Of a DNA stretch of 64,000 bases, positions 52,332-58,019 are shown piece by piece. The stretch comes from a virus. Taxonomy: Duplodnaviria > Caudoviricetes. Under the pieces are notes generated by a model, which saw nothing but the letters and a program-made list of their open reading frames with translations, did not search any database and was not told where the DNA came from. Both the position numbers and the translations under genes were made by a program. The stretch lies in the IMG/VR virus record IMGVR_UViG_3300043105_000102, positions 91,945 to 155,944 of that record. One strand, written 5' to 3'. Every line of letters starts with the position of its first letter. The first letter of the stretch is position 1.

Positions 52332-52697
52332 TTAATACCCAGCTTTTTTCATTATATAATCATAGGAAATAAGATTTTCCTCGGTATAAGGAATCTCTAT
52401 TAGCTTAAATTCATGGAGAGCGCAAAATCTGCGCTTTTTATTATCATTGAATTGCTGTTGGTAAAATCCTCTTTTTCCGCCAAACTTAGAGCTAGGCTCA
52501 TAATGTTGCTTACCTTGGTATTCAATGATAAAATCTATTTTATCGTCATCATCAAAGACAACAAAATCAAAACGAAGGGGCTTTCCATTAGAACTCTTCA
52601 AATCAGGGAAAATATACTCCATTTTGTATTTAAACCCGGAGTCCTCAAGAATCTCGTGAATTTTAATCTCTGCTCTACTTGCGTCCAATTTAGTCAC
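52332..52697 (-). CDS. DUF559/Vsr-like PD-(D/E)xK endonuclease
   Basis: LRFDF...IIEYQGKQHY...DNKKRRFC...LIEIPY. Confidence 0.7.
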   Translation of the reverse strand: MTKLDASRAEIKIHEILEDSGFKYKMEYIFPDLKSSNGKPLRFDFVVFDDDDKIDFIIEYQGKQHYEPSSKFGGKRGFYQQQFNDNKKRRFCALHEFKLIEIPYTEENLISYDYIMKKAGY

Positions 52698-52713: not shown

Positions 52714-53571
52714 TTAATTGAAAAGTTTCCACTCTTTAAAGTTGCGGTTTTTCTTTTTCTTTTTACTATCTTCTTCTTGCTTTATATAATATAATCCATA
52801 CTCCAAGCTAGAGACTTTATCTTTGGCAATACCACGGTTTACTTGCTTTAATATAATATTAACGCCCTCATTAGTTTGCCGCAAATTTAGCATTTCTTCT
52901 TTTAAAACACTGGTTAATTTGTAAGGCTTTAAGTAATCAGCTCTTTGTTCAGGCTTCATGCTTTGCCCCACCTTGGTACCTAACAATTTATTTTGGGCCA
53001 CTCTTTCATCAATCAGAAGCTTAAGCTTTCCAGAACTGATTTGCTCTTGGAGGTTAGCATGGGCTTCTGTGTTAATGGGGGCGCTTGCCTTAATAATATA
53101 AACAGCGTTCATTTCACAGTTAGGAGTTTGAAATTTCTTATAAAAGTTATCGGCATCGTTATAAATTCCAAAATCATTAAAGATTTCATTTGTATCAGGG
53201 TCTACCTGAGATTTTACCAGATAATCTATGAGGCCAATGCCGATACCATTACCATCGACCACTAGACGTCTTGCTTTATATTTATAGAATAATCTTTTTA
53301 TTTTGATGGTCTGTTCCTCAAAGTGTTCATCGTTCATGGTATAAATATTAACAAGTTGCTTTAAAGAAACGCCTTGAGATTGCGGCGTAACTTTCAGAAC
53401 CATAAGAACTGAGTCGCACCCACGCCGACCAACGTCTAGCGTAAGGACATAATAAGTGCCTTTTCCCGATCGTCCAGAAGCTTCATACTCTGCTTGCCGC
53501 AAAATTCTATTTCTTTCAAAAGCTTCACTACTAAAGAACGCATCTTCGGTACTTCCTGACCATCGACTTTC
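52714..53571 (-). CDS. terL: Terminase large subunit, exon 3 (RNase H-like nuclease domain)
   Basis: Begins ESRWSGSTEDAFF; TLDVGR, VVDGNGIG, KDKVSSLEY. Spliced TerL = 234+57+285 = 576 aa. Confidence 0.9.
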   Translation of the reverse strand, partial: ESRWSGSTEDAFFSSEAFERNRILRQAEYEASGRSGKGTYYVLTLDVGRRGCDSVLMVLKVTPQSQGVSLKQLVNIYTMNDEHFEEQTIKIKRLFYKYKARRLVVDGNGIGIGLIDYLVKSQVDPDTNEIFNDFGIYNDADNFYKKFQTPNCEMNAVYIIKASAPINTEAHANLQEQISSGKLKLLIDERVAQNKLLGTKVGQSMKPEQRADYLKPYKLTSVLKEEMLNLRQTNEGVNIILKQVNRGIAKDKVSSLEYGLYYIKQEEDSKKKKKNRNFKEWKLFN

Positions 53572-54312
53572 CATTTTTCTTGCGATATTTTGCGAAATAT
53601 CTCTCTGGTTTTCGCCAGAAGGTGAGAACACATCATCTACATAACGCCACACAAAACCCTTATATGTTTTAACTTTACCTCGGCAGCATTCACCAATATG
53701 CGCAGAATTTTTGAGTCCTAAGGCGCGAGCTGCTGTTCCAACAGAAGGATATGTTGTAATAAACTTACCTTTTAAGTCATACTGATTAACGGGTTTTGAC
53801 TTACCAGTGCTTTTATATTCTTTGGTTTCCCCCAATTCAGGAAAATAAGACCAATAGAAGTTTCCACTTAAAGTCTTGACTTTCTTATTTAATTCTTGTA
53901 AAATAATTGAGTACCTTATTTGGGTGGCGGCCGCGGCTTCATCTATTGTCAAGTACTCTGCAACTAATTGCTTATTTTTATTAAAGCAAAATACATGATT
54001 TGCTACTTGGCTTTGGCTTTCTTCTTGAATCGCCCATTCAAGATTATCCACACAATTATTTAATTTATTACCGTCAATATGATTTATCCTATTTTTACTT
54101 TTATCTATTTTTTCGATAAAAGTTTCGGCCACTAATCTATGAGCATAGCATCTTTTCTTCTTTCCAGAAGGAAGAACTATAGTGTAATAAAGATAACCGT
54201 TCTTTTGGTCTATTTGGCCTTTTAAAAATTTATCGGTATTTGAGTTAAAGCATTTTCCATCTTGTGTAATATAATATGAGGTACCGATATTATTGATAAC
54301 AATGTTTTCCAT
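52714..54312 (-). CDS. Intron-encoded HNH/NUMOD1 homing-endonuclease ORF read through into terL exon 3 (532 aa)
   Basis: RBS GAAAGG and ATG at 54312; AHRLVAETF...NHIDGNKLNN.VDNLEW; two NUMOD1-like segments; no stop before exon 3. Confidence 0.75.
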   Translation of the reverse strand: MENIVINNIGTSYYITQDGKCFNSNTDKFLKGQIDQKNGYLYYTIVLPSGKKKRCYAHRLVAETFIEKIDKSKNRINHIDGNKLNNCVDNLEWAIQEESQSQVANHVFCFNKNKQLVAEYLTIDEAAAATQIRYSIILQELNKKVKTLSGNFYWSYFPELGETKEYKSTGKSKPVNQYDLKGKFITTYPSVGTAARALGLKNSAHIGECCRGKVKTYKGFVWRYVDDVFSPSGENQRDISQNIARKMESRWSGSTEDAFFSSEAFERNRILRQAEYEASGRSGKGTYYVLTLDVGRRGCDSVLMVLKVTPQSQGVSLKQLVNIYTMNDEHFEEQTIKIKRLFYKYKARRLVVDGNGIGIGLIDYLVKSQVDPDTNEIFNDFGIYNDADNFYKKFQTPNCEMNAVYIIKASAPINTEAHANLQEQISSGKLKLLIDERVAQNKLLGTKVGQSMKPEQRADYLKPYKLTSVLKEEMLNLRQTNEGVNIILKQVNRGIAKDKVSSLEYGLYYIKQEEDSKKKKKNRNFKEWKLFN

Positions 54313-54530
54313 AATAACAACCTTTCCGTTATTTTTGTAGTATTGCGCTGCTTAACGCTCTGTTAAGTCTTGTTCGTTGAACCTTCCCCTGTTCGGGGCT
54401 TGGCTGCTGATTATCCAATCCAATTTATTTTCAAACTTTCACGCTTAATTTTATTTCATATTTACGTTGTAGTTAAACTGGCTCTGAGGACTTTCCAGCA
54501 ATTCACAATATTTAAAGAATACAAAAGTCT
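53572..54530 (-). mobile_element. Group I intron (terL intron 2, 959 nt) with HNH ORF in L8
   Basis: P1 AGAAUAU/GUAUUCU with U.G at the splice site; P10 GACUUUU/GAAAGUC; P AAUUGCUGGAAA; Q AAUCAGCAGC; P7 GAACA/UGUUC; terminal G. Removal gives SFSREY|ESRW. Confidence 0.9.
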
Positions 54531-54701
54531 ATATTCTCTGCTAAAGGAAGCTTCGTTAAAGGTACCATCTAATTTTAGGTCTTTAACAAAGTTCTTATCT
54601 AGTAATTTGACAAGGACGGGAATACGATAGGTGCCGCCCATTATCATAGATTTTTCTGGTTTAACAATTTGCCAAACCAAAAGCTGTATTAACTTATCAT
54701 A
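54531..54701 (-). CDS. terL: Terminase large subunit, exon 2 (57 codons)
   Basis: YDKLIQLL...NEASFSREY, in phase 0 with both flanking exons. Confidence 0.88.
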
Positions 54702-54997
54702 CAAAAATTGGACTATTTCTTAGTCTAAAGTACTTTATTTTTTGGCTAGACAAAATGGATTTTTTTGTCCAAGACTTTAGACCCTTCGCGCTTCGATGCT
54801 GGAATTGCGCCAGTCACCTACTCTACTTGCTTTTGCTTTCGATAGTCTCTGAACCTTCCGCTCTTCTAAGCGGCTTGGCACAGCGTTAGTTTTAGACCTT
54901 CACTGTTAGCAGCGCTATGCGCCACACCCCAGTATTCTGGGTTCACGAAGTTTTTCCATATAATATCACTATTATAGGCCCCTATGATAATGCTATA
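54702..54997 (-). ncRNA. Group I intron (terL intron 1, 296 nt, ORF-less)
   Basis: P1 CCCU/GGGG; P10 UUAUCAUA/UAUGAUAA; R GGUUCAGAGACUA; S AAGAAAUAGUCC; ends in G. Removal gives KNTYP|YDKL. Confidence 0.9.
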
Positions 54998-55699
54998 AGG
55001 GTAAGTATTTTTGTATCCAGCCGTTGTAATATACAATTGGCTCTTATTTAATTGCTCTTCTGGATGTGTTGAACCATCCGCACACCTACGAGAAATGTTC
55101 ATGGTAGGTATAATTACTTCTGATAATATTTTGCCATCAACGCCGACACATTCTTCAATAACTCCGGCGTGTCTTCTCTTACCACGAGAAGTTTCTCTGG
55201 CGGCTATGTTGTCAAAGTAGGAACCATTCTTAAAACAATATTTAACGTAGTCCTTACTCTGCTGGGTGGTACCACGAGAATGTTCAATCTCGTTATCAAA
55301 AGCAGGAATAAGCTGACAAATTTCTTGCACTTTTTCCTTCATGATTCCGGCTGCTTGCTGTTTGCCGCCCGAAGTAACAAACAACTTACATTTGGGATAT
55401 AGTATACAACGTATCATTAAAATCATTATAGATAGGAATGATTTGCTGTAGGCTCTAGGGAATACTGCGTATACGTACTGGTGCCGCATACCTATACGCA
55501 GGAAAACTCTTTGATAGAAATAGAATTGGAAATTTTGAGGATTGCCGAACCGCAATAACAAATCTACGAACATATCAGGATATTCTCGCCAAAAGGCTAT
55601 ATAAGAGCGGCCAACTGGTATTACGGCCCGCAACCTTTCTTCAGAAAGTCCTATCTTTTTTCGTTGAGTCGTTAAGTCTAATAGTTCTTGTAGCGCCAT
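54998..55699 (-). CDS. terL: Terminase large subunit, exon 1 (ATPase domain)
   Basis: FYQRVFLR (Q motif), PRAYSKSF (Walker A variant), GVIEEC (Walker B), YITTAG (coupling motif). Confidence 0.9.
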
Positions 55700-56151
55700 T
55701 ATATTTTCGAAGCCTCTTTCAGTTTGTCAATTAGATCTTCTGTGGCCTCGGCCTCATCTTGCTCGAAGTCAAGGAAATCTTCAATGTCAGCGTCCTTAAG
55801 TTCTTCGATGCGATCGAGGGTGAGTTCTTCATCAATTTCCACATCTTCATCTTCTTCTTTGGCTTCCTCAATGGCCATCTTCTTGACAGCTCCCTCAATC
55901 AGGCTGCCCAAATTCATTTCATCTACTATCAAATTTCTTGTATATTGTTTTAAATCTAAAATGGTTTCATCCACTTTATCTTGCGGCTTATCGGTATAAT
56001 ATCTAGGAATAAACCCTTCTTTCTCGCAAAGTTCCACAAATTCGGCGAAGGAATCAATGCCATCAGTTTCAGATTTATTTTGTCGAGCAGTAAAGTTACC
56101 GCTCTTCATAAGACTATCATACATCTTAACCATTTTTTGTGCGCCATCTAC
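55699..56151 (-). CDS. Terminase-associated (TerS-like) protein, exon 2
   Basis: VDGAQKMVKMYDSLMKSG...; stop overlaps the terL start (TAATG). Confidence 0.75.
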   Translation of the reverse strand, partial: VDGAQKMVKMYDSLMKSGNFTARQNKSETDGIDSFAEFVELCEKEGFIPRYYTDKPQDKVDETILDLKQYTRNLIVDEMNLGSLIEGAVKKMAIEEAKEEDEDVEIDEELTLDRIEELKDADIEDFLDFEQDEAEATEDLIDKLKEASKI

Positions 56152-57296
56152 CATTACGTTACGAGAAATCGCTACTTTCTCTCTCTATATTTCTATAGAG
56201 GTCAGACTATATCTTCGTTTATAAAAAACGCTCTCCTTTTCGGTTTTGCTTAAAACCTACTCCTTTTCAGGATAGTCGTTGAACTTGTTATCTTTCACCA
56301 AATTTCCAATAATATCCTCCTGCTCTTTGCTTCTTCCTTATAGCCCTACTAATGTTACTTATATGTAACTCTTTTTGGGCTACATTGATTGAAGGATACT
56401 TACTTATTATATTAAAGTCATTATCTAGTTGCACTATTTCCTTGCAGCAATTATTTGTTTTTATTTCATAAACTGCGTGTAAATTATTTTTTTGGTATGT
56501 TGTCTTTTCTAAATTATCAATTTTATTATTTTTCTTATTTCCGTCTATGTGATTAATTACAAATCCTTCCAAATCACAATCGTTTTTAAATTGGGTATAA
56601 ACAAGAGCATGAATCCGAAACTTTTTATTTTTGCCCTTTTTCCATAGATTTACGACCAAATAGCCACCAGCATTATCTTCATATTGTTTTAGTAGCCTTT
56701 TTGTATTGATATTCATAACTCTTCCAAAAGATGAAATCAAATAATTAGGATAATCTTTTATCATTTTCCATTGTTCTTGCGGCAAATTTTTAATATATTT
56801 ATTTATTGTTTGATTTCCTTTTTTTCTTAGTCCTAATTTTATTGCATGTTGACTGTTTTCTTTTTCCGTTACCCATTCTAAATTGGACAAAACAAAATTA
56901 TGAGTGTTTCCATCAATATGATTTACTATATTTTTACCTTCGATCTTTGGTAAAAACATTTCCGCTACCATTCTATGTACTTTTATTTTTTTCTTTTTTC
57001 CGTTGATGGTTAAATTGTAAGTTGGATAAGTATTGGTCATTTGTGGTGATAGAAACTTATCAGACAAATGACTATAGCACCTACCATCACTATAAATATC
57101 ATAAGAAGTATTGTAATATTGTTTGAACATTTTATTTTCCTTTTTTGGTGAAATATATTTAGCTGCTGATTGCCCAATCTTTATAATTTTCAAGCATTCT
57201 AGCTTAACCTTAAAGAAGGTTTTCTATGTAGCTTATAAAGCTTTAAGGGGTTCCCAGCAATTAAGAGAGTTTAAAGGGAACATAGATTTTTGGTTT
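56152..57296 (-). mobile_element. Group I intron (1145 nt) with HNH ORF between Q and R (L6)
   Basis: P1 GGGGAU/GUUCCC; P10 AUCUAU/GUAGAU; P AAUUGCUGGGAA; Q AAUCAGCAGC; R GUUCAACGACUA; S AAGAUAUAGUCU; terminal G. Removal gives LLDIGD|VDGAQK. Confidence 0.9.
56288..57130 (-). CDS. Intron-encoded homing endonuclease, tandem NUMOD4-HNH domains plus NUMOD1-like tail
   Basis: VHRMVAEMF...NHIDGN...NLEWVTEKENSQHA and WKMIKDYPNYLISSFGRV...NHIDGNKKNN..DNLE...NNLHA. ATG at 57130 lies outside the ribozyme core. Confidence 0.88.
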   Translation of the reverse strand: MFKQYYNTSYDIYSDGRCYSHLSDKFLSPQMTNTYPTYNLTINGKKKKIKVHRMVAEMFLPKIEGKNIVNHIDGNTHNFVLSNLEWVTEKENSQHAIKLGLRKKGNQTINKYIKNLPQEQWKMIKDYPNYLISSFGRVMNINTKRLLKQYEDNAGGYLVVNLWKKGKNKKFRIHALVYTQFKNDCDLEGFVINHIDGNKKNNKIDNLEKTTYQKNNLHAVYEIKTNNCCKEIVQLDNDFNIISKYPSINVAQKELHISNISRAIRKKQRAGGYYWKFGER

Positions 57297-58019
57297 ATCC
57301 CCTATGTCCAAAAGCTGATTAGCTTTTAAGGACGTTTTGCACACTAGCTTTAAAACATCTTCATGGCCCGCCCCTTGAATATCATAAGATTGGGTCATTT
57401 CATTATAAAGTTGCTCCAACCGCACCCATTCTATTGGCTTATAGGGCTTGCCCCATTTTAGCTTTAAGAATTTTAGATCTTCTTCGGTCAAATCTTTAGT
57501 TAATTCTTCATCATCACTATCATCTTTATCGAAGTAATCCTCTACGGGTTCTTGTTGGGGAGGAGCAGGTCGCGGCACCGGGCAATCATCTTTGACCGAA
57601 AGTACTTGAGCTATGTCAATATTTTCATAGCCTTGGCGTTTCATGGTCTGCTCAATTTGATGCTCCTCCATTTTTTCAATAAAATCATTGTCTTTCCAGC
57701 GATAATTGCACCATTGCGATAATTGCATTTTGCCCAAGTAGCGGCCAAGAATAGTAGACCCAGTAACTTTAGCTGGGTCTTTGGCATATTTGACCATTAA
57801 CTTATTCCACTCTTTTGGAATATACGGCACATCGCACTCTTGAAGAATCCAAGTATAGGTATCAGGGTTCCAGTTATCAACGTGCATTGTAACACATTTT
57901 TTACATTGATTCAGTCGCCCATTAGGATACTTCTCAAGATTATAGGTTTTATAGAACTCGCCGCCGCGCATAGTCCTATTACACTTCTCGCAAAAAAAGA
58001 CACCTTCTTTTGTCGCCAT
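57297..58019 (-). CDS. Terminase-associated (TerS-like) protein with N-terminal Zn finger, exon 1
   Basis: CEKC...CKKC; spliced product 391 aa directly upstream of terL. TerS identity rests on synteny only. Confidence 0.7.

Follow-up and report, generated by a model that had tools for sequence, protein, structure and literature searches.

The terL locus

The window analysed here is a stretch of 64,000 nt from a virus record of 155,944 bp (IMGVR_UViG_3300043105_000102), which has direct terminal repeats and is rated as a complete phage genome (~156 kb). In this phage the gene for the terminase large subunit (terL) is split by two group I introns, and the P8 loop of the second intron contains an open reading frame (ORF) for an HNH endonuclease that lacks a stop codon of its own (all window coordinates refer to the minus strand). 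The ORF starts with an ATG at 54312, extends over 247 intron codons and continues in frame through the 285 codons of terL exon 3, giving a fused frame of 532 aa (52714..54312). Its start and lengths, as given in the initial annotation, were confirmed by the ORF listing and by covariation analysis of the intron.

The exon boundaries were determined using L002, a gut phage scaffold with an uninterrupted TerL of 591 aa, as reference. Exon 1 (54998..55699, 234 codons) was recognised as an ORF encoding the ATPase part, which is collinear with the L002 TerL and matches PHROG phrog_2 (terminase large subunit, 1e-09), with the 5′ splice site after the CCU at 54998. Intron 1 (54702..54997, 296 nt) contains no ORF and has a full-length match to Rfam RF00028 (55008..54692, 47 bits, E 1.3e-09), and its ends were set by the exon alignment (...NTYP/YDKLI..., the slash marking the junction) and the omega-G at 54702. 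Exon 2 (54531..54701, 57 codons) aligns without gaps to L002 TerL residues 246–302 in BLASTP (60% identity), and its frame is not continuous with the intron 2 ORF, as the ORF listing places a stop at 54464-54462, 22 codons into the intron. Intron 2 (53572..54530, 959 nt) is supported by a partial RF00028 match together with covariation, and is followed by exon 3 (52714..53571, 285 codons plus stop), which comprises the linker and presumed C-terminal nuclease half and has 56% identity to L002 TerL residues 304–591. Exon 3 aligns gap-free on the L002 TerL from residue 303/304 to 591 and the exons abut at 302/303, so that the splice sites of intron 2 are fixed by this alignment, and the base pairing agrees. 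With the junctions thus placed, the run of the endonuclease frame into exon 3, in frame and without a stop, stands as first described. When joined, exons 1, 2 and 3 encode 576 aa and contain one stop only, at the very end; the product is collinear with the uninterrupted homologue, and the TerL homologues are annotated as terminase large subunit.

The exon 3 part of the fused frame had no match in a Pfam search and only weak PHROG terminase matches, and sequence and profile searches of the PDB gave no relevant match. An AlphaFold model of exon 3 built with six sequences was of low confidence (mean predicted local distance difference test score, pLDDT, 50.8) and displayed a β-β-β-α-β-α core. The RNase H-like matches of this low-confidence model included RuvC, poxvirus resolvase and the G20c large-terminase nuclease, the latter at rank 12 with a root-mean-square deviation of 1.9 over 83 columns (model pLDDT 50.8). 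The model is consistent with, but does not prove, exon 3 being the RNase H-like nuclease half of TerL.

The fused frame is a genuine sequence

An assembly or sequencing error hiding a stop or frameshift was considered as an alternative, an assembly error having been named when the frame was first noted. All 2986 bases of terL are identical (0 mismatches) in two Logan contigs from other runs, and these independent assemblies indicate that the fused frame is not an assembly error. Furthermore, the exact fused protein (P0001) is present on 7 contigs, and three other fused lineages share the architecture with different sequences. We therefore regard an error as refuted, with next to no probability remaining for it.

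The endonuclease frame runs through the intron 2 ribozyme

The intronic part of the ORF (53572..54312) encodes an HNH_3 domain (residues 55–94) and a NUMOD1 / I-HmuI NUMOD-like region (residues 173–222), followed by a tail of 24 codons that are read from ribozyme strands. It is preceded by a Shine-Dalgarno-like GGAAAGG (54321..54327) located 8 nt upstream of the ATG, and GAAAGGUUGUUAUUAUG is kept upstream of the ORF across 13 homologous introns. The final 24 intronic codons (YVDDVFSPSGENQRDISQNIARKM) correspond to P8′, J8/7, P7′, P9 and P9.1 plus the spacer to the omega-G, with the 3′ ribozyme strands at 53584..53641 (P8′ 53641-53637, P7′ 53630-53626, P9 53621-53602 and P9.1 53601-53584). The identity of these codons as ribozyme strands is proven by covariation in P7 and P8, and the overlap with P8′, P7′ and P9 proposed in the initial annotation is thus correct and extends to P9.1.

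For the covariation analysis, the non-ORF parts of the 13 homologous introns were aligned and base pairs were counted for helices P1, P3, P4, P6a, P7, P7.1, P8, P9, P9.1 and P10. The RF00028 match in intron 2 (54513..54340) covers model positions 47–158 (P3–P7, P3′) with 37.6 bits (E 8e-07), below the gathering threshold of 50 bits, and a low score is expected since the 670-nt ORF in L8 splits the model. The internal guide sequence (54517..54528) consists of a P10 strand ACUUUU (54528-54523) and a P1 strand GUAUUC (54522-54517), which pair with GAAAGU of exon 3 (53571-53566) and GAAUAU of exon 2 (54536-54531), respectively, with the omega-G at 53572. The six pairs of P1 are all standard in 13/13 homologues, with two covarying positions and an invariant U·G at the splice site; the window has GAAUAU/GUAUUC versus GAGUAU/GUACUC in most relatives. 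P10 is GAAAGU/ACUUUU in the window versus GAAUCU/AGAUUU in relatives, and is 87% paired over the 13 sequences with 2–3 pair types per position. The 5′ strand of P7 (GAACA, 54371..54375) pairs with UGUUC at 53630-53626, and four compensatory variants of this helix were found: GAACA/UGUUC in the window, GAUCA/UGAUC in L091, GAUUA/UAAUC in L012 and GACUA/UAGUC in the rest. Six or more compensatory variants were counted for P8, pairing is 96% in P3 and 100% in P4, and P6a, P7.1, P9 and P9.1 are likewise supported. This covariation, which includes P1 and P7 variants specific to the window, indicates that the ribozyme is under selection and that the splice sites are firm; judged from its sequence, the intron 2 ribozyme is intact.

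One further homologous locus (L011:3001-3800) was left aside, as its 3′ splice site could not be placed with both the terminal G and the exon frame, and this could be a one-base contig error or an unusual junction.

Relatives of the endonuclease nearly always end before the exon

The first homologue search was limited to proteins of 292–931 aa, and the apparently conserved fusion that it showed is a sampling bias, since the length filter returned only fused forms. A second search at endonuclease length alone gave at least 348 clusters at E≤1e-40 (58–74% identity), all of them stand-alone proteins of 234–257 aa. The tails of these relatives are of two main kinds, with few further variants: one stops in the P9 3′ strand, 11 residues beyond WRY (...SPSSEN-stop), and the other just after P9.1, approximately 19 residues beyond WRY (...SPSGESQRDISEIS-stop), a few codons ahead of the 3′ splice site. 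The DNA of viral and metagenome loci agrees with this. Across the intron family, the last 10–25 endonuclease codons are strands of P8′, J8/7, P7′, P9 and P9.1, and since the stops of the relatives lie after P7′, the overlap of the ORF with the ribozyme core is the family norm and only the missing stop is unusual. In the window, the usual stop in the P9 3′ strand is replaced by CAG (53607-53605) and the usual stop just after P9.1 by GCA (53583-53581). The CAG pairs with a G of the P9 5′ strand, and a G-C pair is thus kept where the members with TAG have A-U. Because its phase matches that of exon 3 and both usual stops are sense codons, the frame runs on to the terL stop.

The nearest relative (L091/P0038, ~75% identical) has a tail of equal length in the same exon-3 phase, and carries a TAA three codons before the 3′ splice site. 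The initial annotation had stated that a stop ahead of P8′/P7′ in close homologues, as a sign of recent loss or assembly error, would refute its proposal; the relatives speak against the proposal in a modified form of this, as a stop is indeed present in the closest homologue, but the stops of the family lie after P7′ and not before it. Relative to L091, the P9.1 hairpin of the window is longer by one base, the A-run after it is shorter by one A, and the old stop has C in place of T. The L091 contig (JGI, 155,986 bp) extends only 6 nt beyond the 3′ splice site of the intron, its assembly break point falling in terL.

Other family members (L106, L103 and L017) are one step from fusion as read from their DNA: L106 is open into exon 3 except for a single TAG at the P9 position, and in L103 and L017 the stops lie 1–3 codons before the exon. 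Eight of the 13 loci are in phase with exon 3 versus one third expected, but since these loci are not independent, we do not find a conserved exon-3 phase across the family convincing.

Fused proteins were found in four lineages, namely P0001 (the window), P0002 (538 aa, 61% identical), P0005 (532 aa, 50% identical, on 3 contigs) and P0003, which is cut by a contig end. No further fused representative was detected among the best 150 matches of the 50%-identity library. Four fused lineages versus ~350 stand-alone clusters amounts to roughly 1%. A fifth candidate, P0004/L008, was rejected as a true fusion: its apparent length resulted solely from reading TAG as Gln, whereas it has a 7-nt deletion and its original frame contains TAG, TGA, TAG and TAA. 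With the deletion located just before the KGFIWRY codons and four stops in the tail, the L008 locus (917-1945) is a decaying copy of the endonuclease gene.

The exon-3 frame breaks after 61–134 codons (e.g. after ...DCNGLG) at several loci (L013:3755-4138, L016:3755-4138, L015:3764-4165 and L014:3756-3938), which suggests further introns in the terL nuclease half of those phages.

The fused state arises repeatedly at the tips of the tree

In a tree of 65 entries, four of them fused, the fused entries are separate tips that need four state changes, at least three of which are forced by well-supported (starred) branches. P0038, which bears a stop, is the sister of the window (95% support), and every fused entry has a stop-bearing neighbour. 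The tree thus indicates that the fused state is recurrent and confined to tips, and that no clade inherited it. Synonymous divergence between members is above 1, at which most lineages would no longer have a stop that was neutral. That the stop is kept, and that in-phase members (L008 and L017, for example) often have two to four of them, suggests that selection usually acts against reading on into exon 3, with the caveat that some tail stops lie in paired RNA and part of their conservation may be structural.

These observations bear on whether the fusion has a function. The initial annotation proposed a switch controlled by splicing, in which spliced RNA gives full TerL and unspliced RNA a second, chimeric nuclease; with at least 348 stand-alone clusters and fused lineages that are separate tips, this idea receives no comparative support. 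A functional isoform from intron retention, in which the chimera starting at 54312 either cuts the intron-less terL of competitors, with the terminase nuclease replacing the weakened HNH, or modulates packaging, would fit with a frame, Shine-Dalgarno sequence and ATG that are intact under purifying selection, with fusion having arisen at least three times and with the HNH metal-site residues that are altered in all fused lineages (see below); exon 3 also holds the whole C-terminal half, with an RNase H-like core in the low-confidence model. However, a stop ahead of the exon is retained in approximately 99% of the family clusters, including the nearest relative; fused forms occur as single tips without the clades and conservation expected of a selected design; the multiple tail stops of in-phase L008 and L017 look like selection against read-through; and a degenerate HNH motif is present in unfused members as well (P0038, P0043, P0078, P0104, P0117 and P0124). 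We consider such an isoform unlikely.

An altered HNH motif in a frame that is still selected

The endonuclease domains were assigned by Pfam, with matches to PF13392 (HNH_3, 28.9 bits, cut-off 24.8), PF07453 (NUMOD1, 34.6 bits, cut-off 22.8) and PF22083 (27.2 bits, cut-off 27), and the intronic ORF matches PHROG phrog_59 (HNH endonuclease, 2.4e-31). The catalytic histidine H78 (the NH in xNHxDGN of the ββα-metal motif) is invariant in all alignments. In contrast, the window has NLEWAIQEESQSQVANH where the family consensus is NLEWVTxxENQQHAxxxELRKFNH: the metal-ligand Asn at +21 from the catalytic His is not kept (S99), the following His is a Gln and 7 residues are deleted, which agrees with the non-canonical motif reported at the outset. 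The His-to-Asn spacing of +21 matches that of H75 and N96 in I-HmuI. The acidic residue E98, next to the lost Asn, may take over its role. ENxxH is kept in approximately 90% of the family clusters, and is altered in 4/4 fused lineages (EES..Q in the window, ASD in L005, ENRQQ in L004 and ENQQR in L007).

Relative to L091, the endonuclease has a dN/dS (ratio of non-synonymous to synonymous substitution rates) of 0.087 over 221 codons with a dS of ~1.8, and comparison with an outgroup gave non-synonymous branches of ~0.09 for the window and ~0.065 for L091, the window being slightly longer. The low dN/dS and the conserved Shine-Dalgarno/ATG context indicate that the endonuclease protein is still selected. 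This is hard to reconcile with a dead gene, that is an inactive endonuclease that is no longer translated, with the open frame as a relic yet to gain stops, even though the replaced Asn ligand and following His, the 7 deleted residues and an end branch about twice as long as that of the sister (0.41 for the window vs 0.19) would all fit with decay. The 247 codons are free of frameshifts and stops, the Shine-Dalgarno sequence is conserved, and E98 might stand in for the lost Asn, and thus we see a dead gene as quite improbable.

A probable sporadic and tolerated stop loss

Taken together, the stand-alone norm, the rarity of fusions, the stop-bearing nearest relative, the independent origins, the intact ribozyme, the collinear TerL encoded by the joined exons, the standard genetic code of the phage and the authenticity of the sequence lead us to interpret the fused frame as a sporadic and tolerated stop loss in an intron family whose endonuclease frame is often in phase with exon 3, rather than a selected design, and this is the interpretation that we consider probable, if far from settled. 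If the ribozyme still splices, the main product would be the 576-aa TerL. On unspliced RNA, ribosomes that initiate at 54312 would have to melt P7 and P9 and would yield the 532-aa HNH-NUMOD-TerL-nuclease chimera, while the excised intron would be a non-stop message, the product of which would probably be removed by host ribosome rescue (transfer-messenger RNA tagging and proteolysis).

Several observations do not sit easily with a merely tolerated loss. Fused forms have at least three independent origins and are maintained in phages in circulation (P0001 on 7 and P0005 on 3 contigs), which would fit a benefit too. The ENxxH motif is altered in all four fused lineages and in only ~7% of unfused clusters (P0038 included), a link that is unexplained. 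Finally, a selected, non-decaying frame in the window phage can be completed only as a chimera or as a non-stop product.

The non-stop product leads to another alternative, in which stop loss limits expression: endonuclease made from the abundant excised intron would be tagged and degraded, leaving the short-lived precursor as the only source of stable protein and giving a low dose of nicking enzyme. The excised intron would indeed end in ...AAA AUG-3′ without an in-frame stop, ribosomes that stall on non-stop messages are known to be rescued in bacteria, with degradation of the tagged product, and phage intron endonucleases are often translationally restrained. But the stop-less state is rare in the family, and the same effect needs no in-frame join to exon 3, and we therefore rate such a limiter as very improbable.

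A more far-reaching possibility is that the chimera, made only from unspliced terL RNA, combines the NUMOD modules of a weakened HNH enzyme with the RNase H-like nuclease of the terminase, for homing, exclusion of intron-less competitors or control of packaging, and that this arrangement was reached independently in at least three intron lineages. Although we hold this to be quite unlikely, a chimera that is made and active would be the first phage case of protein diversity via group I intron retention, and would show a homing enzyme that, in nature, makes use of the nuclease encoded by the gene in which it resides.

Under the favoured interpretation of a tolerated stop loss, the locus still documents an intron family in which endonuclease gene and ribozyme share ~70 nucleotides, where a stop codon within a P9 base pair can be erased by a compensatory change, and where losing the last stop automatically fuses the enzyme to the terminase nuclease. 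It also calls for caution in annotation, as gene callers give a 532-aa 'HNH' protein and miss TerL, and it provides a tractable system for competition between translation and splicing on one RNA.

Comparison with known intron-encoded endonucleases

Organellar group I intron ORFs, such as those in yeast mitochondrial cob and cox1, are in-frame extensions of the upstream exon, from whose start they are translated, and undergo processing. The would-be chimera in the window resembles these in being an intron protein fused to host-gene sequence from unspliced RNA, but differs in that the ORF has its own Shine-Dalgarno sequence and ATG and is fused to the downstream exon. Among the closest known systems are the HNH nicking endonucleases I-HmuI, I-HmuII, I-BasI and I-TwoI from group I introns of Bacillus and Staphylococcus phages, which have HNH_3 followed by NUMOD modules as in the window, and with which the window shares the location of the gene in a loop of a phage group I intron inside an essential gene. 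The differences are that the host gene is terL instead of DNA polymerase, that the Asn at +21 is a Ser, and that the frame, lacking its own stop, continues into the exon that follows. In Enterococcus phage EF1 (MF001358), an intron annotated 'HNH homing endonuclease # Phage intron' is located at the same terL position (...FNRE/...) with an HNH gene in the P8 loop, and its protein ends with a KGFxWRY motif as in the window family. However, the EF1 frame is 175 aa long, is 33% identical, and has a TAA in J8/7 immediately before P7′ AGAUAUAGUC, and hence never enters P7′/P9 or the exon.

Group I intron endonuclease ORFs with a 3′ end built of core pairing strands have been described (Hausner et al. 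2014, PMC3984707, Fig. 2b), but those cases end inside the intron, whereas the window frame crosses the 3′ splice site. Introns in terL were reported for Bastillevirinae in a 2025 survey (PMC11878797). In the literature searched, we came across no intron ORF described as joined to the exon downstream of it.

Genetic code and neighbouring genes

The use of TAG as a sense codon in the window phage was considered and rejected: ORFs in the standard code cover the window, TAG is used as a stop (17/153 long ORFs end with TAG), and none of the 12 tRNAs is a suppressor. Several related phages with a homologous terL intron (L004, L012, L014 and L008) do read TAG as sense, with in-frame TAGs where a Gln is conserved in TerL exon 3 and in the endonuclease (six in L004, 4001-5617). 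In these recoded relatives the family TAG in P9 does not end the frame, which continues to the next TAA or TGA.

Directly after terL, the window contains a 121-aa ORF (52332-52697) with matches to phrog_9084 (1.4e-26) and phrog_559 (7.9e-25), both homing endonuclease families, and a weak match to DUF2726. Homologues are located at the equivalent place in L002 (118 aa), EF1 (122 aa), L004 and L005. The ORF thus appears to be a free-standing, nuclease-like gene with a fixed position between terL and the gene for the portal protein. Upstream of terL, a third group I intron (56155-57260, with partial Rfam matches at 57259..57122 and 56305..56184) splits a gene (57261-58019 and 55699-56154) that is a single 405-aa ORF in L002, and this intron carries a 301-aa double-HNH/NUMOD4 gene with its own stop.

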